Assembly: GCA_037200965.1 (NCBI GenBank)
Contig: JBBCGK010000001.1
Location: 433,992 to 497,991, forward strand
DNA length: 64,000 nt
Reading direction: 5' to 3'
DNA from: a bacterium
Lineage (GTDB): Bacteria; Patescibacteriota; Minisyncoccia; Phycocordibacterales; Phycocordibacteraceae
Shown: piece after piece, positions 38,595-59,094 of the stretch
Position numbering within the stretch: position 1 is the stretch's first letter
Layout: each line of letters begins with the position of its first letter
Notes under the pieces: model-generated
Told to the model about the DNA's origin: nothing
Seen by the model: the letters and a program-made list of their open reading frames with translations, nothing else
Databases searched by the model: none
Made by a program: the position numbers and the translations under genes

Positions 38595-38603
38595 TTAAAA
38601 GCC

Positions 38604-39940: not shown

Positions 39941-39948
39941 ATACCAGC

Positions 39949-40774: not shown

Positions 40775-40810
40775 GTTGCACAACCTCCTTTTTACGAACG
40801 ATCCTGCAGG
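40775..40810. repeat. Array repeat R2 (36 nt, perfect)
   Basis: Exact sequence match. Confidence 0.95.
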
Positions 40811-41427
40811 ACGATATCCACAAATCACTGCTGCGCAGCGCGGGCCTCGCGCATCTCTCGGCGGATGAGATTGGGGACTTGAGGGACTTGGCAGCGCATG
40901 AGCTACGGAATGAGACCGCGGACCGCGGTGGTCTCATGGCGGGATTGCGACTGCGCCTGCAACAATGCGACACACGGCTATCACGCCTTACAGACGCGCT
41001 CCTCGACCACCTCATCGAAAAGCAGGAATACGAAGCCAAGAAGGCCGCGCTCCTGGGCGAGCGGCGCGAACTGCTAGACAAACTGGAAAGCCCGGAGGCT
41101 TCGCGTCAACCCGCCGACGGCGTGCTGCAAGCATTGGAACTGCCAGATGTCGTGGAAACACGCTACGAAATGGCTTTGCCGGACCAACGGCGCCGCATTG
41201 CGTCTGCAATCGCTTGGAACCTAACTGGTAGCGGAAAAGAGGCCGTACCTGAGCTGAAATCTCCGTACCGGGAGATCGTACAGTGGCGTCTTTCCAATCC
41301 GGTGCGCCGTAACGGGGAGCGATCGGAACCTGACATAAAGCTGCTATACGAAGCGCTCAAAGAAGTCTGCCGGCGAGAAGACAAGCCGCCGCAACGTCCC
41401 CAACGTCCTGATGTCTCCGGCATATAA
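40811..41427 (+). pseudogene. 5'-truncated ORF beginning inside repeat R2 (C-terminal ~200 aa of a larger protein; coiled-coil, possibly relaxase/recombinase-associated)
   Basis: The reading frame is open from within R2 (…CTTSFLRTILQDDIHKSLLRSAGLAHL…) with no start context. Ends overlapping the T4CP-like gene. Confidence 0.35.
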
Positions 41428-42724: not shown

Positions 42725-42859
42725 GCGGGATCACGTTTTTTTGCAGATGGCACGCCCGCGTGGGCTGTTTTGGTAATTGCCATAGCGTCTTGGCAACAAC
42801 TGGGCGTCAGTACCTGGCTTCCCTCACAGGTTGAATATATTACAGTATAGCTCAACCAT

Positions 42860-43864
42860 ATGTTGAGTCGCCGCATGCCCGGTATTACCGAATTACTTTT
42901 GAAAATCGCGCCCAAGATCGGCGCAAAAGTGCTGATCGAGCCTGAGTGGGGCTACGTCGGGCAAATCGCCTTCCGAAGCGGTCGCAAGCGGTACTTCCGG
43001 TTCTCCAGCGTTGACGTGAATACGCTGGGCGCATCGGAAGTCGCGAAGGACAAAGATTTTGCGAACTTCTTCATGAAGCACATGGGTTATCCCATCGTGA
43101 AAGGAAAAACGTTCTTCCGGGACGACTGGGCAGAGACAATCCGCTCCAAGCGAAAGATCACGGCCGCCTATCGATACGCGCGACGGCTGGGATTTCCGGT
43201 GATTGTGAAGCCTAACAGCGGCAGTCAGGGGAAAGCAGTATGCTTGGCTCGCACGAAGCGTCAATTCTATCGCGGAATGCGGGCGACCTTTGAGGTGGAC
43301 AAAGTCGCGCTTGTCCAAATACCTGTTTCAGGAAAAGACTACCGCATCGTGGTCTTGGACCGAGAAATCATTTCGGCGTACTACAGGGTTCCGCTAAGCG
43401 TCGTCGGCAATGGAAAAGCTTCCGTAGCGGCGTTGCTCAAGTCGAAGCAGAAAGAGTTTCGGCGCGCCGGGCGCGACACGGCGATCAGGGCCGACGATCC
43501 GCGCATAGCGGAAAAGCTCGAGCATCAGGGACTGAGCTTCGCTTCCGTTCTCCGAAAGGATCAAAAGGTTTTTCTTTTGGATAACGCCAACCTTTCGACG
43601 GGCGGCGAATCGGAAGACGTAACGGAAAGCGTGCACAAGGAGTTCAGGAAAATCGCGGTGTCGCTTACGAGGGATATGGGACTGCGCCTGTGCGGCGTCG
43701 ATCTCATGATAGACGGGGATATCTCGGAGCCGCCCAAAACGTATTGGGTGCTTGAAGTCAATTCGGCCCCGGGGCTCGATCATTATGCGAAAAGCGGCGC
43801 GGCACAAAACAAAATCGTCGAAAAGATGTATACGACGGTGCTTAAGAGCTTGGATCGTGACTAG
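42860..43864 (+). CDS. ATP-grasp family enzyme (RimK/cyanophycin-synthetase-like ligase)
   Basis: ...GFPVIVKPNSGSQGKAV..., ...DYRIVVLDREIISAYYR..., C-terminal ...LCGVDLMIDGD...YWVLEVNSAPGL. Confidence 0.55.
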   Translation: MLSRRMPGITELLLKIAPKIGAKVLIEPEWGYVGQIAFRSGRKRYFRFSSVDVNTLGASEVAKDKDFANFFMKHMGYPIVKGKTFFRDDWAETIRSKRKITAAYRYARRLGFPVIVKPNSGSQGKAVCLARTKRQFYRGMRATFEVDKVALVQIPVSGKDYRIVVLDREIISAYYRVPLSVVGNGKASVAALLKSKQKEFRRAGRDTAIRADDPRIAEKLEHQGLSFASVLRKDQKVFLLDNANLSTGGESEDVTESVHKEFRKIAVSLTRDMGLRLCGVDLMIDGDISEPPKTYWVLEVNSAPGLDHYAKSGAAQNKIVEKMYTTVLKSLDRD

Positions 43865-43956
43865 CTCGTGTATAGTCCATACGACCGATCTTCCTGACAC
43901 CAATAGGCATCGGCCAAATCGTGATTGCTGACCAACGTTTTGCGCCGAGCGACCGC

Positions 43957-44247
43957 CTAGTCGGGATCGTAGGGATTATTGGTATCCGTGCCATTGCGCG
44001 AGGAACCAGACGGCGAACTATACGGATCGACGCGCTTGTGACCTTGCTCGCCCGTATAGGGGTTCACGTTTGGATACGTCGAGTAATTGTTATAGGGATT
44101 GCTGTCAGGCGATGAGCGATGGTGTGGCGGAACATACGTGCCGTCCTTCCGCACATAGCCTCTGACACTGACGTCCTTCGCTGCCGCCTCAGCGCCAGTG
44201 GCCAGCAGGGTCGTGAAGACCAAAAGGGCGGCAAAAATCTTGCGCAT
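43957..44247 (-). CDS. Small secreted Pro/Tyr/Asn-rich protein
   Basis: Signal peptide MRKIFAALLVFTTLLATGAEAAA; then low-complexity PYNNYSTYPNVNPY. Confidence 0.4.
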   Translation of the reverse strand: MRKIFAALLVFTTLLATGAEAAAKDVSVRGYVRKDGTYVPPHHRSSPDSNPYNNYSTYPNVNPYTGEQGHKRVDPYSSPSGSSRNGTDTNNPYDPD

Positions 44248-44357
44248 ATTAACTCCGATCAAAAATGCGGCTCGATGCTAGTTTAGTGGCTGGCGCAGGG
44301 CCAGAGGAATAATCTTCGCAAGCGTGCGTCAGGCCACGCCCTACGGTAACGCGTCGA

Positions 44358-45341
44358 TCAGTTCGCCTCGTCGAAAATCCCATTCAGGATCGCCCCAAGC
44401 CGCACCCCTGCCGCCTGCAAGCGCTCTTCCACGATGGCGGCGCGGTCTTCCTTGTAGTTGCCGTCGGGCGCGAAGACGCGAACGGCGCCACCGGTATACG
44501 TCTCGCTGTCTTCGGAATAGCGGCAGGTGGTGCCGGAGAGCGTACAGTATCCGGTGTCGGGCGCGCGGGAGACGGTGAGCGATTCGTTGGCCCATACCAT
44601 CGGATCGAGCGACGCCTTCCACGTTGCCCGCTGCTCGTCCGTGATTTCCTTTTGAAGAACATTGCCAAACGCCTCGCGCCCAGGGCCTGCTGGCTTCGTC
44701 TGCGCGATGTGGAGATCACGCATGACTTGTTCGGGAATGCAGGTGTCCCACACGGTATGGAGCGCGGTTTTGCCGTCATAGGCGCAGCCCGAGACGCCCT
44801 TCACGCCGACGCTGTTGCCGCCGCGATCATCGGCATACGAAATGTGGAGCGGCTGGTGTATGTCGCCGAGCCAGTGCCCGAGGAATTTGAGGGCCGTGCG
44901 CTTCTTGTCGGTTGAGGCATTCGGGTCTTTGAGGATGGCGATATCGGCGGGGATGGCCGTGAAAAGGCACGTCGCCGCATTCACGCACTTGGCCTCGGGG
45001 AAGCTCGTCCAATCGCGCGGCATATTGATGAAGTGCTCCGCCCTCCGGCTGCTTTGCACATCGCCCTTCTCGTCCGGCCAGGTGCAGGCCCCGTGGAAGG
45101 TTCTCGGTATCTCCTTGCCGTCAGCGTCCTTAAGCGGGGTTTCTGAGCGGATAAGCTTGTTGACCGCCTTGCGGGCCGTCGGCGTGAGCTCCTTGTATGC
45201 GATCTCGCAGACCGCCTCGTGGCCGGTGCCGCCGAAGGCGAGGGCACCGCTCGTTGTGAGACAAAGACTGACGAAGCCACCAGCTCCAAACAGCGCAAGA
45301 AGAACCCGCCGACGTCCACCCATGTACCCGCTCCCCCTCAC
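44358..45341 (-). CDS. Secreted S1/P1-family zinc-dependent nuclease
   Basis: N-terminal signal, then the ...FGGTGHEAV... (W/GH motif) and ...LKFLGHWLGDIHQPLH... zinc-ligand motifs characteristic of S1-P1 nuclease. Confidence 0.7.
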   Translation of the reverse strand: MRGSGYMGGRRRVLLALFGAGGFVSLCLTTSGALAFGGTGHEAVCEIAYKELTPTARKAVNKLIRSETPLKDADGKEIPRTFHGACTWPDEKGDVQSSRRAEHFINMPRDWTSFPEAKCVNAATCLFTAIPADIAILKDPNASTDKKRTALKFLGHWLGDIHQPLHISYADDRGGNSVGVKGVSGCAYDGKTALHTVWDTCIPEQVMRDLHIAQTKPAGPGREAFGNVLQKEITDEQRATWKASLDPMVWANESLTVSRAPDTGYCTLSGTTCRYSEDSETYTGGAVRVFAPDGNYKEDRAAIVEERLQAAGVRLGAILNGIFDEAN

Positions 45342-45453
45342 TATTCGTGCCCAGGATGCGAGGACTCGCCCTAGCCGAAGAACGGATGATGCCCGGATGA
45401 TTTCACCCGTCCAAGAGGAATGTGCGCCTTAGACTTCGTATCGGGCCGGGCCT

Positions 45454-46359
45454 ATGCTGCTTCTATTGGTGGGGTGTTTCTCAGGGGGTATTGGCATGAC
45501 TAGCGGCACGCGAGTTTTTCCGACGCGTTCGTATCGGGCATCATTTCCCATTCATGCGCTTCTTGCCGTCTTCGCGCTTCTCGTCGCGGGTGCGTATGGC
45601 CCGGCCGGTTCGGCCTTGGCCGCGACCAGCGCGGCGTCCTTCTGCCTTGACGCATGCCCCGAGGGCGCGCCGGCAAAGAACAAGACGGTCGTGCACCATG
45701 TCTATGCGCTCAGCTCGAACCCCGACACGAAATTCGCCGATTGGGTCGCGTACAAGATCTCCAAAGCGACCATCGGGTCGAACTGTTCGCGCAAGTGGGC
45801 GAAGGACCCGGACCTAGCGGCCGGCACCACGCTCAAGCCCGCCGATTACAAGGACATCAGTGCGGCGCTCCAGTCCGACCGGGGCCATCAAGCGCCCTTG
45901 GCAAGCCTATGCGGCTCGAAGTTCAATGCCGAGGCGAACTATCTCTCGAACATCACCCCACAAAAGTCCGACCTCAATCAGGGCGCATGGGTGCGGCTCG
46001 AAACCGCCGAACGCAAGCTCATTACGGGCGGCACCGCGAAGACCGTGTATACCGTCACCGGGACGCTCTACGAAAAGAAGATGCCGCCGCTTCCCAAGGC
46101 GAGCGTCAAGCACAAAGTCCCTTCGGGCTATTGGAAGATCGTCGCCGTCGAGACGGACGACGGGATCGACGCCGTGGCGTTCGTCATGCCGCAGGATACA
46201 CCCAAAGCCGCCGATTATTGCGAAACGCGCACCACCATCGGCGACGTTGAGACGCGCTCGGGCCTCAAGTTCTTCCTCGATCTCAACGAGACCGACCGCA
46301 CGCAGCTTGAGGAGAGCGAGGCGAAGACCGGCCTCTATGAGGATTTGGGCTGCGAGTAG
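45454..46359 (+). CDS. Secreted DNA/RNA non-specific endonuclease (Serratia NucA family)
   Basis: Signal-anchor, then SDRGHQAPLAS (the DRGH catalytic motif) and downstream Asn/Glu residues. Confidence 0.7.
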   Translation: MLLLLVGCFSGGIGMTSGTRVFPTRSYRASFPIHALLAVFALLVAGAYGPAGSALAATSAASFCLDACPEGAPAKNKTVVHHVYALSSNPDTKFADWVAYKISKATIGSNCSRKWAKDPDLAAGTTLKPADYKDISAALQSDRGHQAPLASLCGSKFNAEANYLSNITPQKSDLNQGAWVRLETAERKLITGGTAKTVYTVTGTLYEKKMPPLPKASVKHKVPSGYWKIVAVETDDGIDAVAFVMPQDTPKAADYCETRTTIGDVETRSGLKFFLDLNETDRTQLEESEAKTGLYEDLGCE

Positions 46360-46381
46360 CACGAGCGCGGGAAGATACGGC

Positions 46382-46669
46382 ATGCGCAAGGCATTCATAC
46401 TGACGCTGGTGGCGTTCTCCGCACTTGCGGCAACCCCACTCATCGCGCGGACCACGGATGCGGAAGTCCGGGGACAAATGATCCGCGAGTCCATCGCAAG
46501 CTATCCCGGCAACTGCCCGTGTCCGTACAGCACGATGCGAAACGGGCGCTCCTGCGGCGGGCGAAGCGCGTACAGTCGGCCCGGCGGATATGCTCCGCTG
46601 TGCTACCCGTCTGACGTTTCGGACGATATGGTGCGCGGCTATCGAAGCACGCATGGGCTCGGGAACTGA
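46382..46669 (+). CDS. Small secreted Cys-rich protein (95 aa)
   Basis: Signal peptide MRKAFILTLVAFSALAATPLIA; 6 Cys; begins 20 nt after the nuclease stop. Confidence 0.35.
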   Translation: MRKAFILTLVAFSALAATPLIARTTDAEVRGQMIRESIASYPGNCPCPYSTMRNGRSCGGRSAYSRPGGYAPLCYPSDVSDDMVRGYRSTHGLGN

Positions 46670-46865
46670 TCGATCCGATTGATATCTGGCGAAGCGCGCA
46701 AACGCTCATCTCGCTCTATGGCGATGAGGCGGAACAGTTCGCGCTTCGCCGCGCCGCTACCCTGCTCGGCGAAGGAGACCGGGAGGGCCATGCGGCAATG
46801 GCAAGCGTTGCGGAAGCGGTGAAGAAGCTGCGGCAGGAGCGGCCCGAAAGCGGCGATGCCGTCCA

Positions 46866-47273
46866 CTAGTCGGCGTCCGGCAGCTTATCGGAAGCCTCGG
46901 CAAACTCCCGCACCAGCGCGACGATGTGCTTGCGCCGGGCGGGCGACTTGACCTGCGCGAACGCTCTCGCAAGCGCCCGCCCGTCGGCGCTCGAAAGCAG
47001 CGGCATTTCTTCCGCGAACAGTGCCGAACGGGCTTTGTCGTATGCCTCGGAAACGAAGTATTCCCAGGGCAGATCAAGCACCACCATCATCCGCAACAGC
47101 GCTTCAAGCGGCAGCCGGTTGGTTCCCTTTTCATACTTCTGCATCTGTTGGAAACTAACGCCGAGGCGCTTTCCGAGAGCGAGTTGCGACAGGCCGCGCA
47201 GCGTCCGTGCGGCAAATATCTTTTGGCCGATAATCTTATTGATCTCTGACGAACTGTGCTTGCGCGGGGCCAT
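46866..47273 (-). CDS. XRE-family (Cro/C1-type HTH) transcriptional regulator
   Basis: IGQKIFAARTLRGLSQLALGKRLGVSFQQMQKYEKGTNRLPLEAL. Confidence 0.6.
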   Translation of the reverse strand: MAPRKHSSSEINKIIGQKIFAARTLRGLSQLALGKRLGVSFQQMQKYEKGTNRLPLEALLRMMVVLDLPWEYFVSEAYDKARSALFAEEMPLLSSADGRALARAFAQVKSPARRKHIVALVREFAEASDKLPDAD

Positions 47274-47349
47274 TCTCAATCCCGTTATACTATCGATCTC
47301 GCAAATTCTATGGCGCGAAAACCCCATTGTCGCGCGCAATCTCAGCCTG

Positions 47350-48333
47350 TTACGCCTCCTTCATCCACTCCCGGTGCATGCGCTCCCATTCCGGGCGCGG
47401 CGCTTCGAACTCTTCCCGGAACCACGGCATATGCTCTGGCACGAAGACCGTCTCGCGCAGGAACGCGAGCGTCGATTTGACGGCGGGTTTTGCGGCATGC
47501 ACGCGGTTATATGAGATGTAGAGCTTGCCGGGAAGGCGAAACGCAAGCGGAAGGGCGACGAGGTCCGGGTCGCCAAGCGCGTGGTAGGTAGGTGCGAGCG
47601 CGATGCCCGCGCCAAAATGCAGGCACCGCTCGAAGAAGCTCGTCTGGTTGGTGAGGATCGACACGTTCTTGACGACGTTTCCGCCCGACCATGCGGCCCA
47701 GGATGCCGTGCGCGTCTGATACTGGGCGAGATCGAGCAACCGGTGCTCGCTAAGCGCTTCGCTCGTCTGCGGCGTCCCGTGTTTTTGCAGATAGGACTTC
47801 GACGCGAACAGGGCGTAATGGACGGTCGCGAGCGGCCTCGACACCTGATCCGAATTTCCCGGATCGTAGAAGTGGATGCGGATGTCGAAGCTGTCGCTTC
47901 GGGGCGCGGTGATGTCCTGATCGGGCGATACCTTGAGCTCAATGTTCGGATGCCGTTCGAGGAAGCTCGGCATGAACTGCGCCAGCCAGAGGCTCGCAAC
48001 CCCGTCCGCGACCAGGATGCGGCAGTCGCCTTGAACGCTGCCTCCGCTGTCCTTCGCGTCCCTGCGAAGGAGCGCAATGCATTTGCGCGCCTCAAACGCG
48101 TTCGGAAGCAGACGTTCGCCGAGGTCGGTGAGCGCGCAGCCGTCGGTGCCGCGTATGAATACGCGCCCGCCGATCCACTGTTCGAAGCTGCGCAGCCGCT
48201 TGCTCACGGTTGCCTGCGTTGATCCGAGCATCGCCGCGGCCCGCTTGATGCTGCCGCCCTCGGCGATTGCGAGAAAATAGCGGAGATCGTTCCACTGCTC
48301 GGGCGAGGGGTCATCACTATTGGAAAGTACCAT
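47350..48333 (-). CDS. LysR-family transcriptional regulator
   Basis: N-terminal HTH WNDLRYFLAIAEGGSIKRAAAMLGSTQATVSKRLRSFEQWIGGRVFIRG... plus a substrate-binding domain; divergent from the GNAT gene. Confidence 0.7.
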   Translation of the reverse strand: MVLSNSDDPSPEQWNDLRYFLAIAEGGSIKRAAAMLGSTQATVSKRLRSFEQWIGGRVFIRGTDGCALTDLGERLLPNAFEARKCIALLRRDAKDSGGSVQGDCRILVADGVASLWLAQFMPSFLERHPNIELKVSPDQDITAPRSDSFDIRIHFYDPGNSDQVSRPLATVHYALFASKSYLQKHGTPQTSEALSEHRLLDLAQYQTRTASWAAWSGGNVVKNVSILTNQTSFFERCLHFGAGIALAPTYHALGDPDLVALPLAFRLPGKLYISYNRVHAAKPAVKSTLAFLRETVFVPEHMPWFREEFEAPRPEWERMHREWMKEA

Positions 48334-48434
48334 CTTCCGTCCCTTGGCTTCCGGGCGGCGATAATCGAATGGCAATTTAAGCTCCGGCAACAAAAAAATG
48401 CATAAGGCGCCAGGCGGCGCCGTGGAGTAATTCC

Positions 48435-49601
48435 TTGGAAAAGAACGATTTTAGCGCGATACGAAGCGGTACCTACGGGCCCGAACATGCCGCAGCGCAT
48501 CCCGATGGGGGAAGCGTATGGCTGCGTCCGGCCGGGGTCGGGGATATTCCGTTTGTGCATAGCCTGACCGTCTCGGACATCTCCGCCGAAACGGCACCGG
48601 AGGAGGTTATTCGGGCTGTTCACGCCCGCAATCCCGATGCCCTGTGGCTTATCGAGCGCCAAAGAGGCGGGGAGCCACCGGCCCCTATCGGCTATTTCGG
48701 CTTCCTGCCGCTCACCGATCCCGGTCTCGACGCGCTCAAGGAAGGCGCGCTCGACCGCAAGAGCCCGCCGCTTGAGCTTGTGGCCGAGGGCGGCACGCGT
48801 CCGGCGGCGGTGTACGTGTGGGGCGTCGTGGCGCATCGCCTAGTGCGGGTCACCGCGCCGCTCCTCACCCTCGCGCTTTCGCCTTACATCGACGTTCCCT
48901 TCTACACCGTCTCCCAGACCGAAGAGGGGCTGCGCTCGGCCCGTAGGCGCGGCTTCGTGCCGGTCGATGCGCGGATCGGCGACCGGGGCGGGCTCGTGCT
49001 GCTGCCGCTTGGCAGCCTTCTTGCGCCGCCGCCAAGCAAAGTCGCGCAGCTCGACGTGATCGTGGCCTCGAACGCCGAGCACCTCATGATGTGCGCCTAT
49101 GTTCGCGGCGTGGTGTTCGGCGCGGAGCAGCTCGCCCCCTACCGCGAGGAATTCGACGGCAACGACTTCTGCGGCATCCAGCTTCTGGGGTTCGTGAACA
49201 ACGAGCCTGCGGCAGTGCTTCGCATCCGTCACTTCGCGTCATTCGCGAAATTCGAGCGGTATGCCGTGCTCGAGCGCTTCCGCAAAACGCGGATCAAGTA
49301 CGAAATCCTGGAGTTCGGAATCGAGCTGTGCCGCCGCAAGGGATACACGAAGCTCTACGCGCACTCGCAGGTGCGCCTCGTCCGCTTCTATGAGCGGTTC
49401 GGCTTTCGTCTGTGCGCCGCGCAGCGTCCGCTCGTCTTCGCGGATCACGAATACGTCGAGATCGAAGCCGACCTCGCGCCGCATCCCGAGGCGATCACGA
49501 CCGCCACCGATCCCTACGTGATCATCCGACCCGAAGGGGCGTGGGACAGGCGCGGCGTTCTTGACCAGTCAGCGGCACGGCCCGCGACTAATCCCGTCTA
49601 G
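48435..49601 (+). CDS. GNAT-family acetyltransferase (two GNAT-like halves)
   Basis: C-terminal half ...AVLRIRHF...ELCRRKGYTKLYAHSQVRLVRFYERFGF fits the acyl-CoA N-acyltransferase fold; divergently paired with LysR. Confidence 0.55.
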   Translation: MEKNDFSAIRSGTYGPEHAAAHPDGGSVWLRPAGVGDIPFVHSLTVSDISAETAPEEVIRAVHARNPDALWLIERQRGGEPPAPIGYFGFLPLTDPGLDALKEGALDRKSPPLELVAEGGTRPAAVYVWGVVAHRLVRVTAPLLTLALSPYIDVPFYTVSQTEEGLRSARRRGFVPVDARIGDRGGLVLLPLGSLLAPPPSKVAQLDVIVASNAEHLMMCAYVRGVVFGAEQLAPYREEFDGNDFCGIQLLGFVNNEPAAVLRIRHFASFAKFERYAVLERFRKTRIKYEILEFGIELCRRKGYTKLYAHSQVRLVRFYERFGFRLCAAQRPLVFADHEYVEIEADLAPHPEAITTATDPYVIIRPEGAWDRRGVLDQSAARPATNPV

Positions 49602-49603
49602 GA

Positions 49604-49840
49604 GTGCTCGACATGGCCGGAACGCTCGATTGCTTTGTCCGCCTTGTTGAACTCGACACCTGCGTGCGTGAGTTGGCACAGCGCAAGCGCGCGAATAATA
49701 GGATCAGCATATCCGATCTTGATGACGTTCTCCTGGCGCTTGCTGAAGCTCGGGAAACGATCCAGGACGACGCGTATGACGAGATGGCGAGGCGGCGAGC
49801 GATAACAACGGCGGACATAATGCAGTTCGCAAAAGATTAG
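49604..49840 (+). CDS. Small hypothetical protein (78 aa)
   Basis: ORF 2 nt after the GNAT stop; no domain. Confidence 0.25.
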   Translation: MLDMAGTLDCFVRLVELDTCVRELAQRKRANNRISISDLDDVLLALAEARETIQDDAYDEMARRRAITTADIMQFAKD

Positions 49841-50107
49841 CGAAAGCGCGCGGCTCTATTCAAAACGCGGCCTACGACAAGTTCGCAACTATTCGTCCGA
49901 CAACACTCGCCCGATAACGGATCATTCGGCAACCAGAGGATAATGAGTATATCGCGGGAGCGAAGCATAGGAGACGATGCAGTGCATAGTCCGTCATAAA
50001 TTCAACGGCGGCATCCTGATGGTAGCTGTATAACAGCGTGGTGCCGGAACTTCCCCTTGTAGCCAATACCGGGCTTCGTTACAAAGCTTCAAGGGGAGGC
50101 TATATGC

Positions 50108-51743
50108 ATGCTTAATCACACCTTTGGAGTGATCTCGCTGGGTCGTTTCCTCACTGCTATACGTCCTGCGCGTTATGCGGTCCGCTCTGCCAATCGAACA
50201 CGCTTCGGCCAAGGGCTGGTCTCGGTCCGCACCCTAGTCGTCGCTGCGTGCGTTGCAATGAGTTGGCTAGCCGCATTGCCGCAAGCCGCCATCGCGAGCA
50301 GCGTCTTGATGAGCGTGCCAGGCGAAAGCGACGTAAACTCGGCGGGTGCCTTCACATATTCACTTCCTATTGCAGTTCCGCCCGGGACTGCCCGCATCGT
50401 ACCGCGACTGTCGCTTGATTATTCCAGTCAAAGCGGCAATGGCCTCCAAGGCCTCGGCTGGTCGCTTTCCGGATTGCCGGCAATAGGAAGATGCGCGCGC
50501 ACGGTGGCGCAAGACGGCGTGCATGGCAGTGTCAATTACGACGGCAGCGACAAATTCTGCTTGGAAGGCCAGCGCCTAGTCGCCCTAAGCGGCGTCTATG
50601 GCGCGAACAATACGGAATATCGTACCGAAATAGAGAGTTTCACCAAAATTATTTCATACGGAACGGCGGGTAACGGGCCAGCCTCGTTCAAAGCGTGGAC
50701 CAAGTCCGGTCAAATCCTGGAATTCGGAAACACGGCGGATTCCCGTATCGAAGCGGTCGGCAAGACAACGGTGCGCGCGTGGGCCGTCAATAAGGTTTCC
50801 GATGCCAAAGGAAACTACGTCACGGTCGAATACACCGACGACCAAACTAACGGAGAGGCGTATCCGGTTCGGATTGATTATACCGGCAATCCCAACGCAA
50901 CGCCGGTGGTTATGCCGTACAATTCCGTGCAGTTCACATACACAACGCGCGCAGATATCACGATTGCCTATCAGGCCGGTTCGCAGCAGAAGATCACAAA
51001 ACTTCTCACCAATATTAAGACTTATCAAGCCGCGAATTTGGTTTCCGACTATCGCCTTGCCTATCAAGCCGGCTCATCGCTCGCACATTCGCGTCTAACG
51101 TCCATCACGTTATGTGATGGGTCGGGTACGCCGGTATGCCTTGCCCCCACGACCTTTGGCTGGCAGGGTGGCAGCGGTAGCCTGCCGACAATGACCGGGA
51201 CCGCATCCACTATCATTCCGACGCAAAGCGGTGATTTCAACGTTGACGGATTAACAGACCCCTTTGTCAAAGCCCCGTATTTTGGAACTCAGAGCGGAAC
51301 GTTCGTCGCGAGCGGCATGACTATAAGCTATACCGACCCCATATCGGGATTGCCGTGGTCGGGTCTAACGGCTTTCCCCAACACAATGGTCGGGTTTGTA
51401 TTGGGTGATACCGACGGAGACGGGTATAGCGACGTCACCGCGATGCGGGGTATCGCACATGGCGCTTATGCCAGGTTGGTGGTTACGCGCAACGACCAGC
51501 TCGGAAATCTTGGTCAGATCGGCCTGATCGATCCGCTGCATGCTGGCGCCATATTCAGCGGCGACTTCAATGGAGACGCGCGCACGGACGTTTTCGTGAC
51601 GGGTGTAGCTTCTTATAACAGTACGACGTATCTGAGCCTGGGGACCGGATCGTTCACCGCCATCAACATGAGTTCGGTATATGAACCCATCACGACCGCC
51701 GATTTTGATGGTGACGGATGCACCGATTTCTTGGGATCGACTA
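50108..51743 (+). pseudogene. N-terminal fragment of a Tc-toxin TcB/SpvB-like protein with FG-GAP/VCBS-type repeats, truncated by repeat R3
   Basis: SLPIAVPPGTARIVPRLSLDYSSQSGNGLQGLGWSL (SpvB N-terminal signature); GDFNGDARTD, DFDGDGCTD repeats. The ORF runs without a stop into R3 and then into nonsense. Confidence 0.6.
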
Positions 51744-51779
51744 GTTGCACAACCTCCTTTTTACGAACGATCCTGCAGG
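51744..51779. repeat. Array repeat R3 (36 nt, perfect); truncates the SpvB-like gene
   Basis: Exact sequence match; translated in frame as CTTSFLRTILQ at the end of ORF 50108. Confidence 0.95.
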
Positions 51780-51793
51780 TTTCCGTTAATCTT

Positions 51794-53134
51794 CTAAGTC
51801 TCTTGTTGAGACGCAACACAGCCCCACGCCGCTTTTACCGAGTCATAGATAAAGCCTACCGTCAGAACCTTGGATATAACCGTCGTGGTTGGCAACGCCG
51901 TGCCTTCTGCCACGAACGACGCCCCCCAGGTAATCGCCCGGGCCGTACCGTCGTCTTTGATCCTGAAGATGAGCGTCTGGAAGTTCGTGGGTGTACCGGA
52001 GAGATTTGTCGTCATCGACGTGATCGCGGTCGCAAGAGCAGTAATCGTCACGGCGTCGCACCCATCGCTATTCACTGTAGGGGTTGCCGAAGAAACAATC
52101 GTCGTTATGCGTGGAGTATTTCTCTTATTTGCAAGAGTCTGTGTACCATTGTTAGTCACGACACTGTCAGCGTTTGTGCCTGCAACCGAGATTCTCAAAT
52201 CTCCTGTTCCAACGGTAAGCACTCCTGAGGTGTGCGTTGCAACCCAGTTACCGTTACTAATGTTCCAGGTAAAACCAGTAGCACTAAAGAGATCGGCCCA
52301 TCCAAGCGCGGTCGTCCCAAGAGCGGCAATATCATTCGTGACCGGGGAAAGAGCGGAGGAGGTAAGTTGTATCGTTCCTGTTCCGTTGATAGCCAGACCA
52401 AGCGTATTGGTTGTAGGAAGGTAGAGGCGATTACCGGTAGCAGTTGAAGAGGTAGGAGCAAAGCCAGCCGCAGTTGCCAGCGATGCCAACGTCAAAGCTC
52501 CGGCGTCGGTCAAGGTTGCATTGGTGGATGTTGCTTGTGCGCCGCGCGAAGTACCATCGGACCGAAGTATAGATTCATCTGTGGCAAAAGTGGCGGCAGC
52601 GGTGACTACATTACTCGGTATATCGCTTGTAAGAGCGACGGTACCCGTGGACGCCGGAAGGGTAATGGTGTTAGTTCCAGCGATTGCCGTAGGGACGAGG
52701 GCGATGGTACCGGAAGTTGAACCCGAGAAGGTTACACCCTGGGTACCGGAAATGATGCCAGTGGTGTCAGCAATAAGCACTGCCGAGTTCTGGATCAGCT
52801 TACCAGTGGTAGTGTCGAAGCGGGCCACGGCGTTATCAGTTGCTGAAGCCGGGCCTACAACATAGGTAGCAAGGGAAGCAGTCGTAGGAATAACATAGCC
52901 GCTTTGGAGCGCTATAGCGATCGTTCCGGAAGTAGTGATCGGTACGCCGGATACCGTAAGTCCTGTCGGTACCGTAGCGTCAACGGATGTAACCGTACCT
53001 CCTCCTCCGGGGAGGTCTATAAGAAGCCTGTGCGTCGTCGGGTCTGCATATAGACGCACAGGCGTCTTGCCGTCAGCGCTTGAAGCTGCTATCAGCGTTG
53101 GAACATCGTTCTGGTCTCGGTAAGCATCAGCCAT
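51794..53134 (-). CDS. Thr/Ser/Gly-rich beta-repeat protein resembling a phage tail fibre/adhesin
   Basis: 446 aa; N-terminus ...IAASSADGKTPVRLYADP...; low-complexity T-rich repeats (…TSGTIALVPTAIAGTNTITLPASTGTVALTS…). Confidence 0.45.
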   Translation of the reverse strand: MADAYRDQNDVPTLIAASSADGKTPVRLYADPTTHRLLIDLPGGGGTVTSVDATVPTGLTVSGVPITTSGTIAIALQSGYVIPTTASLATYVVGPASATDNAVARFDTTTGKLIQNSAVLIADTTGIISGTQGVTFSGSTSGTIALVPTAIAGTNTITLPASTGTVALTSDIPSNVVTAAATFATDESILRSDGTSRGAQATSTNATLTDAGALTLASLATAAGFAPTSSTATGNRLYLPTTNTLGLAINGTGTIQLTSSALSPVTNDIAALGTTALGWADLFSATGFTWNISNGNWVATHTSGVLTVGTGDLRISVAGTNADSVVTNNGTQTLANKRNTPRITTIVSSATPTVNSDGCDAVTITALATAITSMTTNLSGTPTNFQTLIFRIKDDGTARAITWGASFVAEGTALPTTTVISKVLTVGFIYDSVKAAWGCVASQQET

Positions 53135-53136
53135 AA

Positions 53137-53298
53137 TCAGGTACTTTGTACGAGTAATTCCCCGGCACTATTGGCGTAGAGCACCACAGGCGTCTTGCCG
53201 TCAGCGCTTGAGACAGCCATGAGTGCAGGAACAAAGTTTGCGTCCCGCAGATCGTCTACCGGCCCAAAGTCCGACCCGGTAGTGTCGTCGTCCGCCAT
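53137..53298 (-). CDS. Short N-terminal paralog fragment of the tail-fibre-like protein, starting next to repeat R4
   Basis: ...VPALMAVSSADGKTPVVLYANSAG... mirrors the N-terminus of the 51794-53134 protein (...IAASSADGKTPVRLYADP...). Confidence 0.3.
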   Translation of the reverse strand: MADDDTTGSDFGPVDDLRDANFVPALMAVSSADGKTPVVLYANSAGELLVQST

Positions 53299-53327
53299 AA
53301 GCGCATGTGTTGAAGGGTCAGCAACGA

Positions 53328-53363
53328 GTTGCACAACCTCCTTTTTACGAACGATCCTGCAGG
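53328..53363. repeat. Array repeat R4 (36 nt, perfect)
   Basis: Exact sequence match. Confidence 0.95.
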
Positions 53364-54738: not shown

Positions 54739-54774
54739 GTTGCACAACCTCCTTTTTACGAACGATCCTGCAGG
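54739..54774. repeat. Array repeat R5 (36 nt, perfect); truncates the patatin-like gene
   Basis: Exact sequence match; read through as SCRIVRKKEVVQ by the minus-strand ORF. Confidence 0.95.
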
Positions 54775-55372
54775 AAACCATGAGAGAACCCGAGTTGATC
54801 TCGGTGGCCACGATCTTCAAAGGCGACAACTCGTTAAATTCCTCATAGTTCAGGTCAGCGAACCGAATTCGATCAGGCACTCCATCGTGATCACGACCAT
54901 TTGCGGCATATAATTCCCGCATACGTTCTCGAAGAACTGTGTTGATGAATTCACGAATGGGCGTTGTGGTGAAAAAGCCTAAGTGCCGCCATATGCGCAG
55001 CATTCCAAACGTAACTAGGGGAGCTGTTAAAAAAGACAATAATACACCCCCCAACGCCGTAGCGGACAATGCCCATCGAAGTCCCTGGCGGAGGCGAACA
55101 AATCTACGCCAATCATCAGCCCCCAATAACGTTACGGGGGTCAAGTTATGTAGGCTGAGAATATTTTGATCCCTAATGTCGGGATTCATCAAAGTCGAAG
55201 CACTGTATCCCGCCGCGACTAGCGTTGCCACGATCGCGCCAGCTGACGCCCCGGCTACACCTACGAAGGCGAGCCCATTCTTCGCGGCACCCTCCAAAGC
55301 ACCAATATGCGCTATGCCCTTAGCACCGCCACCTTCGAATATGCCAAAGGCTGGCCTCTTAGCGTCCATCAC
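54775..55372 (-). pseudogene. Patatin-like phospholipase, 3'-truncated by repeat R5
   Basis: GIFEGGGAKGIAHIGAL (oxyanion-hole GGGxxG) and GASAGAIVA (GxSxG nucleophile). The ORF is read through R5 before the catalytic Asp (DGG) region is reached. Confidence 0.6.
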
Positions 55373-55505
55373 TGTATGTATCCTTTCGCAAATCAGGTCG
55401 GGGCCTGCACAAACGACAGAACATCGGACAGGCTGGTGAAATAATGAGATACCAGCCTTCGCACATTGCTGTTCCGCATACAGATACAGCAGTTGCTAGT
55501 TCAAA

Positions 55506-57077
55506 TCAGTTCAGTTGCTCCCGCACCAACGAAAGATCGTTGAACAACGTTCTCGTAAGATTCGGGATTTTTTCCAGTTTGTCTGCTTGTATTAACTTCG
55601 CCATAAAACGAATGCTTCCCTCCACTCGCTCGTCATAGAATATTTCGTGCAGAAACTTCCGCCCCTGCCGCAAATCCGTAGCATCAAACAGAAATTCCAG
55701 CTTGGCTTCGTTATCGACCATAGCAACTGCACGCCAAAAGAATCGAGGAAAATTCGCTGTCAGGAGGCTCTTGCGGACTATCTTGCTTAGGGAGGAGCGC
55801 GAAACAATCTCGCGTTTCAGATCGCTTGGGCCATTCAAAAATATGTCCCACTCGAAACGAGCCATATCACTATTGCTCGATAATTTTTTAAGCATCTCTA
55901 AAATATGATCAAATGCCAGGATAGCATCGTACACGTCGTCAAATCGGACGCGAATTTTGCTATAGAGCGGCACGAGACACAAATCCGCGCGAGCACGGGT
56001 TATCTTCGTCCCACGCTTTCGAGACCAAGTTGTCGTTATGATGTTAGATGGGCCGCTCAGCTTGATCTCAGAGTATGGGCCGATGCCGTCGTCATGCGCA
56101 TACAGTTTGGTTATGCGCGTCGCCCGTAGAAGAAAACCCGTGCGAGGTTCGGGTACTATGGGACCAGTTGTGGGCCCAAGGCCGCTGAGTGCGACCGCGT
56201 GAAATGCTCGTTTGCTTTTCTTGGAGCGTTCTAAGTTGAAGTCAAAACTCAGAATGATCGGAATATTGCCCCTCAAGAATGCATTTGCTGCGGCTTGGAT
56301 ATTGGCTCGCTCGGGCGTCATAAACAAATCCGCTTCGAGACCGACATTGCGCAAAACGCCAGCCATTTGATCGATATCCAAGCCGTCGTTCGGGAGAGCT
56401 AGGCCAGCTGTTGGCAGCGAAGCAAACGCTCGTTTGGTTATTTCAATAGGTGATAAGATTGGATTGTCATACAAATTCGCCGTGCCATGCAGTGTAGTCC
56501 ACAGAGCGCTGGTAGCGCATGCGCCAACCTCTCGGTCTTGTTCTTGAAAAGGCAGCGCACGTACAGGCAGATCTATGCCGAAAAGATTTGGTACATATCC
56601 GCGCTCAGTGAGGAAGCGACTCGATGGATTACTCCCAACCGGCGCCAAACACGTTCGCCCAATGATGGTTTCGGGAAGAGGTTTGACAACTACAAAGCCG
56701 TGATATCCCAAGACGTCGAACCTACACTCACCGCGGCCCGAAACGAAAAGCGCTTCGACCATATCTTTATCGAACGGTTGCCGAAAAAAGTGAATTCGTG
56801 AACATTCTTTCGGATAGTTCGCGTGGCATCTCGCGTAGTATCCTGTATGATCTTCGGCGAAATGCTTGTCGATGTAGTCGCGCTCAAATACAAGAGTTTC
56901 GATTTTCGCGGCTTCACAGTAACGAGCTAGAAAAATGACCTGGGGCTTTTGTGCAATTTGCTCCAGTCTAGGTTTAAATGCTCCGGCAACAAAAAGCGCT
57001 ACCAAGTTCTCTCGATTGTACTTGAGTACTTGGTAGCGCTCGCCCATGTGATCTAACTGAATATCCGCGTACGTCAC
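55506..57077 (-). CDS. Hypothetical protein (523 aa) with a possible Cys-His peptidase-like motif
   Basis: Large clean ORF in array segment E; GACATSALWTTLHG is the only suggestive motif. Confidence 0.45.
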   Translation of the reverse strand: MTYADIQLDHMGERYQVLKYNRENLVALFVAGAFKPRLEQIAQKPQVIFLARYCEAAKIETLVFERDYIDKHFAEDHTGYYARCHANYPKECSRIHFFRQPFDKDMVEALFVSGRGECRFDVLGYHGFVVVKPLPETIIGRTCLAPVGSNPSSRFLTERGYVPNLFGIDLPVRALPFQEQDREVGACATSALWTTLHGTANLYDNPILSPIEITKRAFASLPTAGLALPNDGLDIDQMAGVLRNVGLEADLFMTPERANIQAAANAFLRGNIPIILSFDFNLERSKKSKRAFHAVALSGLGPTTGPIVPEPRTGFLLRATRITKLYAHDDGIGPYSEIKLSGPSNIITTTWSRKRGTKITRARADLCLVPLYSKIRVRFDDVYDAILAFDHILEMLKKLSSNSDMARFEWDIFLNGPSDLKREIVSRSSLSKIVRKSLLTANFPRFFWRAVAMVDNEAKLEFLFDATDLRQGRKFLHEIFYDERVEGSIRFMAKLIQADKLEKIPNLTRTLFNDLSLVREQLN

Positions 57078-57538
57078 ACTGTGAACGGGATACGCCGACG
57101 GTCAGGAGAAATCTGGTTGGCTTGTTCTCGACTTTCAATTGCCTTGAGCATTGGCGAAAGACGCTTAGCGACTTGCGCAGTAAGATCAGTTCTGGAGGCC
57201 GTCGCCTTGGACTTGGGCCGTGCAGAACTCTTCGTCTTTTTGTGACGCATAGCGCAACCTCCAATTTCGGTGAGCAGGATGTTGCCCTCAGTTCCAGCCC
57301 GGCGGGTATAAACTCCAACACGGGGATCAAAATCAAGCTCATGGACTTGACTTCCTGGAACGGGGCCGCCTAGGGCTCCCCTGTAACGAATCAGCCCTGT
57401 TCTTAACGTACCACGAGCGCCTTCGTATCCCCAATATTTTGTATGTGGATAATCCACCAACACAAGTTCTTTGAATGGTGAGGCTGGCCGTTGCCTTTCC
57501 TCAGTGGCGTCGCCGTCCGTTGACCCAATCGCCTGCAT
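57074..57538 (-). CDS. Hypothetical protein (154 aa)
   Basis: 4-nt overlap with the downstream 523-aa gene; no domain. Confidence 0.3.
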   Translation of the reverse strand: MQAIGSTDGDATEERQRPASPFKELVLVDYPHTKYWGYEGARGTLRTGLIRYRGALGGPVPGSQVHELDFDPRVGVYTRRAGTEGNILLTEIGGCAMRHKKTKSSARPKSKATASRTDLTAQVAKRLSPMLKAIESREQANQISPDRRRIPFTV

Positions 57539-57677
57539 AACAATTTAATGCCTTCCTTCTGGCAGCAGACCACTAGGAGCGGCAGACGGCCGTTCATTAT
57601 CAGCGTGGATCATTGGCTGGACCGAGCCCCAATCGGTGACTGATTCGTACGGCTAAAGACCGCTCGGGTCAACTAAG

Positions 57678-57713
57678 GTTGCACAACCTCCTTTTTACGA
57701 ACGATCCTGCAGG
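57678..57713. repeat. Array repeat R6 (36 nt, perfect), cas-proximal
   Basis: Exact sequence match; 32 nt from the cas2 stop codon. Confidence 0.95.
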
Positions 57714-57745
57714 AGTCCGTGTATATTGAGCGGTAACGCGAATTA

Positions 57746-58042
57746 CTAGACAATCTCAAAGGACTTGATCTTATAATACTCCCCGATAACGGCATCGGCA
57801 GTTGAATTAAGTGCGCATGATTTGCAGGAAGAAAATAGATGCAGCCGATCCCGTTTTCCCGTGAATAGCGATCGCATCTTCATTTCAAATTCCCGGCGCT
57901 CCTTAAAGGAAAGGCGTCCGACGTAGAGAGTCTGTTGAAGTGCGGATAAACCATAGTCCTTTGATAACTTTTCCGCGCGGATCTGGCGCTGCCGATTGGC
58001 GGTTCTCCAGGCGACTATTGCAAGGAAGCATGGATCATTCAT
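57746..58042 (-). CDS. cas2: CRISPR-associated endoribonuclease Cas2 (beta1 Asp apparently replaced: LAIVAW)
   Basis: 98 aa; ...RQRQIRAEKLSKDYGLSALQQTLYVGRL... fits the Cas2 alpha1/beta3 pattern (…YGxRxQxSVFxC…); 4-nt overlap with cas1; 32 nt from R6. Confidence 0.55.
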   Translation of the reverse strand: MNDPCFLAIVAWRTANRQRQIRAEKLSKDYGLSALQQTLYVGRLSFKERREFEMKMRSLFTGKRDRLHLFSSCKSCALNSTADAVIGEYYKIKSFEIV

Positions 58043-59094
58043 GGTGCCGCATATTCAAACGGCACATATAAGGGCGCTTTTTCAAGAAATACCCGGCTTA
58101 AGAGCTCGCTCTGTTCCGTAATGGTATTGCGGAGCGTACGGCGTTTCCCGTGATGGAGGACTTTCGACTCGAGGCGCTTAAGCACCGCCTCAACCACCTT
58201 GCTCTTTCCTTGCGCAGAAAGCCGATATTCGATCTTGCTTACCTGCTCGAAATCGCCGCGCTTGCCAAGTTCCTGAGAAATGAAGAGCGGCATGACTGCA
58301 GCGTCGACGACGGGGACCCGAAACTCTTCGACCAGATCGAGGACGAGCGCGGGCTTGCCGTAACGCTCGGAATGATAAAGTCCGAGATACGGGTCGAGAC
58401 CGATATAAAGGCACGCCCGCTCGACTTCGTTATAGAGGATGCCGTATCCGTAATTAAGAGCGCTGTTGAACTTGTCCCTGCCTTGCGGTATCCGGCCCGG
58501 GAACTTAAAAAGCGATTTCATGCCTTGCCAATAGCGCTCTGCAATGGATCCTTCAAGGCCAAGCAGTTCCTCGTTCACCCGGTTGCTCGGAAGCAGCTTC
58601 GCTATCGACTCAAAAACCGCCTCCGCCTGCATCCGCTCCTTCGCATTCTCCGCACCGTATCGGTCGGCAAGATGGCGCATAAAGCGGATTTGGTTGCGGC
58701 ACTTACCGACAACGAAGGTACGCGCAAGTTCGAAGGATTTAGCCGGATCGGAGGAAGTCGTAAGCTGTGCGCGGCGCAATGTCGCGAGCCCCTTCGGGTC
58801 GCTTGAGAAAATGCGCCCGACGGGTTTCCCAAATGCGCCGAGATAGACGATATCGACTTCGTGCTCGAGCGCGAGTTGCACCGCATGCATGGAAATGGAG
58901 GACGGACGGAGTATGACGATCTTAGCAAGCCGCCGGACCGGATACTCCTTCTTAACCCGGAGAAGCTTTACCGCAGTTCCCCGCTTGCGACGCCTGCCAC
59001 CCCCAAGCGGCTTTCGCGGAACCGGGAGACTGACCGTAATACGCTCGCCCGTCGCGCCGATGAAGCTGCCATAGGTATCTATCAGCAAATCCAT
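58039..59094 (-). CDS. cas1: CRISPR-associated integrase Cas1
   Basis: NSALNYGYGILYNEVERACLYIGLDPYLGLYHSERYGKPALVLDLVEEFRVPVVDAAV is the hallmark Cas1 catalytic-region signature; 351 aa. Confidence 0.85.
   Translation of the reverse strand: MDLLIDTYGSFIGATGERITVSLPVPRKPLGGGRRRKRGTAVKLLRVKKEYPVRRLAKIVILRPSSISMHAVQLALEHEVDIVYLGAFGKPVGRIFSSDPKGLATLRRAQLTTSSDPAKSFELARTFVVGKCRNQIRFMRHLADRYGAENAKERMQAEAVFESIAKLLPSNRVNEELLGLEGSIAERYWQGMKSLFKFPGRIPQGRDKFNSALNYGYGILYNEVERACLYIGLDPYLGLYHSERYGKPALVLDLVEEFRVPVVDAAVMPLFISQELGKRGDFEQVSKIEYRLSAQGKSKVVEAVLKRLESKVLHHGKRRTLRNTITEQSELLSRVFLEKAPLYVPFEYAAP

Follow-up and report, generated by a model that had tools for sequence, protein, structure and literature searches.

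Casposons carry cas1 together with a gene for a family-B DNA polymerase between terminal inverted repeats and form no arrays, and orphan Rhs/CdiA toxin-tip cassettes, which have a stretch of core-gene sequence in common, retain the genes for the C-terminal toxin and for immunity. These elements, along with CRISPR adaptation modules, integron cassette arrays and Tc toxin TcB or Rhs-type loci, are the closest described counterparts of the locus considered here, which lies in a stretch of 64,000 nucleotides (nt) of contig JBBCGK010000001.1 from a bacterium of the Patescibacteriota (assembly GCA_037200965.1), referred to as the window. The locus consists of cas1, a cas2-like gene and an array in which six CRISPR-type repeats, R1 to R6, separate kilobase-sized DNA units, one of which ends with an incomplete SpvB/TcB-like toxin gene. 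We estimate a probability of about 0.7 that Cas1-Cas2 integrated a kilobase DNA fragment with one end inside this toxin gene, so that the SpvB reading frame represents the end of a 10.9-kb foreign 'spacer'.

The locus resembles a CRISPR adaptation module by its cas1 gene with active-site residues, its cas2-like gene and the identical 36-37-nt direct repeats located just after cas2, as well as by the leader-repeat junction conserved in most relatives and the similarity of the repeat to bona fide CRISPR repeats of archaeal relatives. It differs by its units, which measure 140-10,933 bp (median about 1.5 kb) and contain whole or truncated genes, compared with about 30-40 bp, and by the lack of detected effector genes and of a match to Rfam. 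With casposons the locus shares a Cas1-family integrase tied to kilobase DNA insertion and target duplication, and the solved casposase structure 6opm was found among the detectable structural relatives of this Cas1. In contrast, one cas1-cas2 pair per array is located outside the units, the repeats are direct, and this Cas1 scores best against CRISPR-type Cas1 models. Identity as a casposon was rejected, since all six repeats are direct, cas1 is outside the units and no DNA polymerase was found among the scanned open reading frames (ORFs) of the window; none is conserved around the related loci either. Integron cassette arrays likewise combine an integrase gene with gene-sized units between short repeats and show hypervariable content among close relatives, but the present locus has no IntI tyrosine recombinase, its repeats are identical and not variable attC sites, and gene fragments point both ways. 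As no recombinase is conserved, the repeats are identical and ORFs on both strands are cut at unit edges, identity as an integron was rejected as well.

The toxin gene fragment shares with Tc toxin TcB and Rhs-type loci the SpvB N-terminal domain and the FG-GAP blades in its first 545 residues, and its relatives are followed downstream by RHS/YD-shell genes whose toxin tips include Colicin_E5. It is unlike them in having four of seven blades and no TcdB_midN domain, RHS shell or toxin domain in the ORF or in the window. Orphan (displaced) Rhs/CdiA cassettes are comparable as pieces of polymorphic-toxin genes beside repeated sequence; the difference is that the N-terminal end was kept here and that the adjoining CRISPR-type repeat is unrelated to the gene.

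A TcB-like gene is cut at a CRISPR-type repeat

The features at the junction are the following.

50108..51743, plus strand: 5' part of the TcB-like gene, codons 1-545, with signal peptide, SpvB N-terminal domain and four of seven FG-GAP blades
51744..51779: R3, a CRISPR-type repeat of 36 nt that ends the toxin-gene homology
51780..52228, plus strand: read-through tail of the 706-aa ORF, non-coding, antisense to the tail-fibre-like gene of the next unit

The ORF at positions 50108..52228 of the plus strand comprises 706 codons for amino acids (aa) and joins an SpvB/TcB-like N-terminal part to a read-through tail. Pfam searches detected the SpvB domain (PF03534) at aa 79-249 with an E-value of 2.1e-17 and 63.7 bits (cut-off 22), and matches to FG-GAP_3 and FG-GAP at aa 486-542. 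Four calcium motifs of the type D-x-[DN]-x-[DN]-G-x-x-D were located at aa 376, 434, 486 and 532, and among these are both motifs quoted in a preliminary description of this DNA, whose assignment to an SpvB/TcB N-terminal region with FG-GAP repeats was thereby confirmed. The 5' side of the gene is intact, with a start codon, the Shine-Dalgarno sequence GGGGAGG 9 nt upstream and an upstream intergenic region of 267 nt, and the deduced protein starts with a hydrophobic leader (signal peptide). The homology to related proteins stops at aa ~545-552 according to BLASTP, with the fragment ending in ...DFDGDGCTDFLGS, five residues past the fourth calcium motif, and the first base of R3 falls within codon 546. 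No stop codon is present where the homology ends; the frame continues through R3 into antisense DNA, and its last 161 codons consist of 12 repeat-encoded codons and an open frame antisense to the gene at 51794..53134 (minus strand). Therefore, the public annotation as an SpvB/TcaC protein of 706 aa is a chimeric read-through. The earlier statement that the gene stops exactly at R3 was accurate, and of the accompanying term 'decapitated' the truncation stands, whereas the loss of a head does not: the gene lost its C-terminal part.

The 584 SpvB homologues that were collected typically comprise 890-950 aa with the SpvB domain, FG-GAP repeats and a TcdB_toxin_midN domain (PF12256), and seven calcium motifs were counted in each of the homologues P0058 and P0025 versus four in the window copy. 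The alignment to full-length relatives, proposed beforehand as a check, thus places the cut after the fourth of seven motifs. The TcdB_toxin_midN domain of the full-length relatives was not found in the 706-aa ORF or elsewhere in the window, and a tblastn search of the window with the C-terminal halves of five relatives yielded only FG-GAP cross-matches at 51098-51760. Neither an RHS/YD shell nor a C-terminal toxin was found after the cut in the window, where R3 and a phage fragment are present instead. As the closest full-length relatives are SpvB-FG-GAP-TcdB_midN proteins of about 930 aa, the polypeptide is missing at least about 400 aa, which need not include an RHS body. An FG-GAP beta-propeller with four of seven blades is not a complete fold, and the four motifs of the window copy fall short of a seven-blade propeller. 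With this number of blades and without TcdB_midN, RHS shell or toxin domain, the fragment cannot form a Tc/Rhs toxin complex and is a passenger, inert cargo in the form of an ordinary pseudogene.

The cas1-cas2 locus and its repeats

The remaining repeats and the genes next to them are arranged as follows.

58039..59094, minus strand: cas1, 351 aa, PF01867 and TIGR00287, with the aligned active-site Glu, His and Asp/Glu kept
57746..58042, minus strand: cas2-like gene, 98 aa, overlapping the cas1 stop codon, with weak Cas2 matches
57714..57745, minus strand: stretch of 32 nt from the cas2 stop codon to R6 (leader-repeat junction region)
57678..57713: R6, proximal to cas2 and the leader
54739..54774: R5
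53328..53363: R4
40775..40810: R2
38559..38594: R1, marking the array's distal end at 16 nt from the start of tatD

The cas1 gene product matches PF01867 with an E-value of 1.1e-63 and TIGR00287 with 221.5 bits (cut-off 71.7). In alignments with solved Cas1 structures, the active-site motifs are matched by Glu, His and Asp/Glu residues that are invariant in the clade. The 98-aa ORF has conserved counterparts downstream of cas1 at 31 related loci. Its Pfam Cas2 match (E 0.0034, 18 bits) is under the cut-off of 23.8, and its top PDB profile matches are Cas2 proteins, with weak (E 0.06-0.44) but co-linear alignments. In the Cas2-like proteins of 13 loci (alignment A3), the usual N-terminal catalytic Asp is not evident, and a tryptophan (W12) and a C-x-S-C motif (C73, S75, C76) are invariant. 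This pattern suggests a modified, perhaps metal-binding, Cas2. The preliminary description had overlooked that the array is located directly downstream of cas1-cas2, a position that identifies their products as the likely capturing machinery.

The repeat GTTGCACAACCTCCTTTTTACGAACGATCCTGCAGG is 36 nt long and occurs in six perfect direct copies in the window, with none expected from shuffled sequences, and the copies are confined to the side downstream of cas2. The array starts 32 nt after the cas2 stop codon and its far end is situated 16 nt before tatD; from cas2 outward, the units measure 2,903, 1,375, 1,548, 10,933 and 2,180 bp. Uniform short spacers of about 20-70 bp were thus not observed, as the units of the window extend from 1,375 to 10,933 bp. 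On the cas1 strand the repeat terminates in AAGGAGGTTGTGCAAC, a Shine-Dalgarno-like sequence (AAGGAGG near the 3' end) about 9 nt before the start of the unit. Hairpins were predicted for single repeats on the cas1 strand (z -2 to -2.8). No consensus structure was obtained with RNAalifold for 27 distinct repeats, with pair counts and covariation not above those of shuffles, and the invariant terminal TGCA...TGCA pairing was the sole pairing left after this test. The repeat did not match any Rfam family, and the exact 36-nt sequence gave no matches in public metagenome contigs, so that same-repeat sister arrays were not available for comparison. Moreover, no effector or CRISPR RNA processing gene (cas3, cas5, cas6, cas7, cas8, cas9, cas10, cas12 or cas13) was found among the window ORFs scanned, some of which have no family match.

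Arrays of kilobase-sized units at related cas1 loci

At least 120 relatives of Cas1 with at least 50% identity were detected, and those with a name belong to Paceibacterota, Parcubacteria, Nomurabacteria or the "Patescibacteria group". A scan of species-representative genomes yielded 45 Cas1 loci, among them 35 closer relatives with about 40-85% identity. Within 10 kb of the arrays at these 35 loci only cas1 and cas2 are conserved, and no cas6, cas4 or effector gene was found in this range. With the exception of L015 and L027, the loci of this group with sequence past cas2 carry at least one 36-37-nt repeat right after cas2. Its usual form in a motif scan is CCTGCA...AAAGGAnnTTGTGCAAC; the repeat of L011 is too divergent for the scan and was confirmed by three exact copies. 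Directly before the first repeat most loci share a ...GGCT motif, as expected for a leader-repeat junction, with deviations in the window and its closest relative.

Arrays were compared in 16 related loci, mostly from Patescibacteria, and in the window, with flanks of 10 kb. The 16 loci contain 36-37-nt repeats at a spacing of 140-4,242 bp with whole and truncated genes in both orientations. The 17 arrays together comprise 43 units of 140-10,933 bp with a median of 1,473 bp and none below 100 bp, and 58 of 60 repeat copies are identical within their own array. The repeat of the window (CxTGCA...AAGGA...TGCAAC) also resembles the repeats beside the archaeal Cas1 relatives L036-L041. These distant relatives (about 30-33% identity; Methanospirillum, Methanocalculus) have CTTGCA...AAGGAcTGCAAC repeats in ordinary arrays with a period of 72-78 bp. 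Judged by this comparison, the system resembles a module for CRISPR adaptation in which the units have grown to kilobase size.

At 23% of the 86 unit edges in the 17 arrays, an ORF with a minimum length of 100 codons meets no stop codon before it enters the repeat. Pfam domains cut at such edges include a TrwB-type ATPase that begins at profile position 215 and an FAD-binding domain that ends at 220/349 (both in L024), an NDK domain that begins at position 57 (L013) and a Ppx/GppA domain that begins at position 105 (L005). The ORFs of all units are distributed over the two strands in numbers of 64 and 44. An inspection by eye of 60 junctions revealed no shared motif at the unit ends that resembles a protospacer adjacent motif or a terminal inverted repeat.

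The unit lengths are not uniform overall, and 15 of the 43 units measure 1,228-1,591 bp, which suggests a preferred fragment size or a size filter. At positions 9966-11120 of L029, on the same contig as L026, a 5'-truncated cas1 with cas2 and leader is bracketed by two repeats; apparently a unit has arisen here by capture of the cas1-cas2 module itself or of a copy. The metagenome-assembled genome MFD05512.bin.1.167 contains such cas1 loci on three contigs (L016; L019; L026/L029). The first unit ORF at 11121-12204 of L029, which is open at the repeat edge, resembles the C-terminus of an Rhs core, with YD-type repeats (...GDPKG...RDTLGL...) and a variable tail, and no Pfam family was assigned to it at an E-value of 0.001. 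By its sequence, it would be another polymorphic-toxin fragment in a related array.

Proposed mechanism and the cassette alternative

The proposed mechanism was drawn by analogy with CRISPR adaptation and casposon integration. It starts from features that are directly observed, namely the truncation, the repeat junction, the adjacency of cas1-cas2, the insertion between metG and tatD described below and the recurrence of this architecture at related loci. In the proposed reaction, Cas1-Cas2 would attach a linear double-stranded DNA fragment by its two 3' ends to the repeat beside cas2, one at each end of that repeat, and the 36-bp repeat would then be duplicated by gap repair. The measurement of fragment length is seemingly absent in this lineage, which would lead to units of 0.14-11 kb. 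The fragment ends would be located wherever the DNA broke, in this case after codon 545 of the TcB-like gene. Cas1-Cas2 would accordingly be the putative inserting agent, and by the same analogy acquisition is probably polar, proceeding from the cas2 side. At the level of the clade, we lean towards the view that a large group of Cas1-Cas2 modules, mainly from episymbionts of the Patescibacteria or candidate phyla radiation (CPR), lost the length ruler and every effector gene and may archive kilobase DNA of phages and neighbouring cells between CRISPR repeats, the truncated toxin gene being one such entry.

A number of observations weigh against the capture of a foreign fragment by Cas1-Cas2. 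Canonical Cas1-Cas2 complexes measure about 30-40 bp. To our knowledge, no Cas1-Cas2 has been shown to build arrays with kilobase-sized spacers. The SpvB unit is an outlier by size, with 10.9 kb compared with at most 4.2 kb elsewhere (2.6 times the longest), in a view limited by the 10-kb flanks. A donor of this unit was not found, the best SpvB match being 51% and the best LysR match 47% identical. Its tetranucleotide usage is much nearer to the host than that of the other four units: the raw correlation r is 0.92, compared with 0.95-0.97 for native chunks and 0.25-0.56 for the other four units, which are clearly foreign by composition. The TETRA z correlation of the SpvB unit is 0.49, compared with 0.55-0.68 for native chunks. 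In composition the unit thus falls between native chunks and unrelated proteobacterial loci, which is ambiguous with regard to foreignness. Random cuts of the flanking genomes leave open ORFs in 36% of cases, so that the unit edges (23%) cut ORFs somewhat less often than chance; together with the unit sizes near 1.3-1.5 kb, this indicates that capture or retention may be not fully random. Finally, the R3 junction and the order of the units are taken from the deposited contig alone. The Logan contig L048, which is from the same sequencing run, SRR28211700, and carries cas1 and cas2, ends 27 nt into R6, and a Logan contig with the tail-fibre-like gene fits a unit with partial repeats by its listed length of 1,604 nt alone.

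The foremost alternative is an integron-like cassette platform, in which whole genes would be collected at the repeats for expression, by Cas1-Cas2 or by an unseen recombinase, and in which the SpvB fragment would be a mis-excised or decayed cassette. Many units indeed contain complete ORFs, the sizes cluster at 1.3-1.5 kb or about one gene, the deficit of cut ORFs at unit edges is in line with the collection of whole genes, and the Shine-Dalgarno-like end of the repeat (AAGGAGGTTGTGCAAC) about 9 nt before the unit could serve the same interpretation. However, Cas1 is the only integrase conserved near the arrays, the genes are present in both orientations (64 versus 44), clear N- and C-terminal truncations occur at the edges, units can be as short as 140-386 bp, the AAGGA motif is also part of ordinary CRISPR repeats of archaeal relatives, and the repeats are identical within an array, unlike attC sites. 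Moreover, the SpvB gene is otherwise intact, with neighbours and a promoter region of its own, and is broken off where the repeat begins, at its first base; for this reason the units are best explained as raw genome fragments and not as designed cassettes. We therefore regard the cassette platform as unlikely.

The toxin fragment is ordinary per se, and its worth is that of a clean marker of what the units of the array are. If Cas1-Cas2 made the junctions, a natural CRISPR integrase would insert DNA of 40 to 300 times the normal spacer length at a defined site, with a bearing on the spacer-measuring mechanism and on the evolutionary link between casposons and CRISPR, and with relevance to tools for site-specific insertion of long DNA and to DNA recording. 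The arrays would then constitute a natural long-fragment DNA recorder, a direct record of the phages and neighbouring bacteria met by uncultured episymbionts, and possibly a way for bacteria with tiny genomes to sample foreign genes or acquire them; CPR bacteria could then no longer be viewed as largely devoid of CRISPR-related functions. No description of Cas1-Cas2 arrays with kilobase-sized units was found in the full-text literature searched, which was mostly without subscription journals, and a prior description is possible.

Insertion between metG and tatD and origin of the SpvB-bearing unit

The block of cas1, cas2 and array is flanked by two native genes.

59150..60580, minus strand: metG, native flank upstream of cas1
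37727..38542, minus strand: tatD, native flank downstream of the array, directly beside metG in related genomes

The gene order of this region was compared in 80 metagenomic loci encoding TatD relatives (45-69% identity), several of them on contigs of 630-675 kb or from 0.1-µm groundwater filtrates, and 60 of these loci provided enough upstream sequence. In 57 of the 60, metG and tatD are immediate neighbours on one strand, with metG upstream, and belong to a conserved series of AI-2E transporter gene, metG, tatD, rpsF and ssb, in this order. The window keeps this order, but 20.6 kb with cas1, cas2 and the array separate metG from tatD. This comparison shows that the block, including the SpvB DNA, is an insertion and not ancestral local sequence, and indicates that the SpvB-bearing DNA was imported and not resident. 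As a separate observation, the gap between metG and tatD measures 0.5-1.8 kb, compared with less than 100 nt, in L050, L056, L061, L086, L097, L099, L104, L105, L108 and L113.

Of the two alternatives that had been formulated for the fragment at the outset, its capture as part of a larger toxin gene is favoured by this insertion and by the bracketing of the SpvB unit between R2 and R3. The other, that a target gene had been invaded by the expanding array, did not hold, because the block is an insertion that separates metG from tatD, and because the window contains no other half of the gene, whether beyond R3 or elsewhere. In the wider form of that second alternative, the LysR-GNAT-SpvB block would be the bacterium's own DNA, and a cas1-cas2-repeat module or a growing array would have inserted itself into the SpvB gene. 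In favour of such an event, the 10.9-kb block is near the rest of the window in composition and atypical for the family in size. But the adjacency of metG and tatD in related genomes marks everything between them as inserted, the remainder of the gene is not located upstream of cas1 either, and the far side of the block carries R2, another unit and R1. Moreover, no second copy or intact paralogue from the same contig was among the top 120 homologues listed, and relatives of the genes of the block reside in non-CPR contexts. A native SpvB gene is accordingly considered improbable, at less than one chance in ten.

The named relatives of the SpvB protein are from Rhizomicrobium, Bradyrhizobium, Thiobacillus and Pseudomonadales, and the two neighbourhoods examined are of proteobacterial type, with RND efflux, TonB, TetR and MarR genes. 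The divergent LysR-GNAT gene pair beside the SpvB fragment has its nearest relatives, with 41-47% identity, in the same arrangement, and one such pair adjoins genes for Ros/MucR and FabH, a setting unlike that of CPR genomes. The HerA/TrwB-like ATPase, encoded at the opposite end of the unit, has relatives with 48-56% identity in viral contigs, and a truncated relative is part of a spacer in L024. A 6.6-kb contig of GCA_015689235.1 has the same gene order with a HerA protein that is at least 90% identical, and could be derived from the donor or from another array of this kind. With relatives in proteobacterial-type neighbourhoods and viral contigs, and not in CPR ones, the donor is probably to be sought in such sources. 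We conclude that the SpvB unit was in all likelihood imported, with a donor and a route that are less certain than those of the neighbouring units.

Assembly evidence

The window matches GenBank record JBBCBH010010897.1 (960,259 bp), the first base of which corresponds to position 46709 of the window, inside the SpvB unit. A Logan contig from run SRR28211700 covers positions 42578-49173 at 100% identity and bridges position 46709, and thereby supports a closed circle of 0.96 Mb for this record. A genome size of about 0.96 Mb is typical of CPR bacteria. Contigs that break off in the repeats, as the two Logan contigs with cas1-cas2 and with the tail-fibre-like gene seem to do, are expected of a 31-mer assembly that meets a repeat of 36 nt. 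Since the source is a metagenome in which the recovered k-mer contigs seem to break at repeats and the unit order comes from the deposited contig, an assembly artefact was taken into account, in which contigs of different organisms would have been joined at a shared 36-nt sequence to give a false SpvB-repeat junction. Such an artefact is very unlikely, as the same architecture occurs in at least 17 arrays from independent projects and assemblers, the Logan contig reproduces the sequence across the record start, and the repeats of the window are found only downstream of cas2.

Short relatives of the SpvB protein

The closest relatives of the SpvB protein share 48-51% identity with it, the best non-self match being 51% identical, and are shorter, several having 533-697 aa. 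Two of them were examined with their gene neighbourhoods. P0002 is encoded by a split gene that is followed, after a gap of 100 nt, by a separate TcdB_midN ORF and further downstream by ORFs for two YD-shell proteins, one an RHS/YD-shell protein of 1202 aa and the other carrying a Colicin_E5 tip. The gene of P0006 is broken by an IS66 element and resumes as a 1478-aa FG-GAP and RHS protein. Both proteins run beyond the cut point with one more FG-GAP motif. In SpvB relatives the RHS shell is thus either encoded downstream or fused, the latter in an RHS fusion protein of about 2000 aa, and the expectation that regions of this type precede RHS/YD repeats and a toxin was corroborated by the TcdB_midN, RHS_repeat/YD-shell and Colicin_E5 matches in the ORFs that follow. 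No homologue was found that ends naturally at the cut, and a stand-alone SpvB and FG-GAP protein ending at this point can practically be dismissed: the several database matches of 533-697 aa are all that speaks for it, whereas both short relatives examined derive from broken genes and pass the cut, no stop codon marks the end of homology and four of seven propeller blades make an incomplete fold.

Contents of the array units

The units of the window array contain the following genes.

54775..57677, unit R5-R6, 2,903 bp: patatin-like gene cut at R5, and ORFs of 523 aa and 154 aa
53364..54738, unit R4-R5, 1,375 bp: orf173 and a phosphoribosyltransferase-like ORF, open towards R5 and probably truncated at its N-terminus
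51780..53327, unit R3-R4, 1,548 bp: piece of phage DNA, with a small gene upstream of a tail-fibre-like gene
40811..51743, unit R2-R3, 10,933 bp: genes from orf182 to the SpvB fragment
38595..40774, unit R1-R2, 2,180 bp: PurA/PurZ-like adenylosuccinate synthetase and a 250-aa ORF, with an ORF open to the R1 edge

The R2-R3 unit contains orf182 and genes for a HerA/TrwB-like ATPase, an ATP-grasp protein, an S1/P1 nuclease, a NucA endonuclease, an XRE regulator, a LysR regulator and a GNAT protein, followed by orf78 and the SpvB fragment. In the R3-R4 unit, the tail-fibre-like gene at 51794..53134 (minus strand) encodes 446 aa, and about 26 N-terminal codons of the small ORF are missing where it meets R4; both genes are syntenic with the IMG/VR contigs L133, L134 and L136. 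A direct repeat of 74 nt (53046-53119 and 53174-53247) reflects an N-terminal motif common to the two genes. The patatin-like phospholipase gene at 54775..55372 (minus strand) retains the GGGxxG and GxSxG motifs and is cut at R5 before the region of the catalytic Asp; the ORF as called continues through R5 into the neighbouring unit. The R1-R2 unit, most distal from cas2, would be the oldest unit. Its PurA/PurZ-like gene at 38909-39940 (plus strand) is of the short archaeal or phage type (phrog_1211, E 6e-72; NF003295, 362 bits with a cut-off of 368) and could be a marker of phage DNA with 2-aminoadenine (Z-base) metabolism.

Other features of the window

Outside the array, positions 734-1458 and 16317-17747 of the window are linked by several families of short direct repeats (24-31 nt, 75-96% identity). 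The stretch from 15 to 21 kb has a lower G+C content (0.51-0.54) and deviant tetranucleotide usage, and may be another island or repeated element. At 24587-28302 on the minus strand, two adjacent large paralogues of 544 and 658 aa each contain a peptidoglycan-binding domain, and they have segments of 76% identity in common as well as internal repeats of the GTGGTGGT type.

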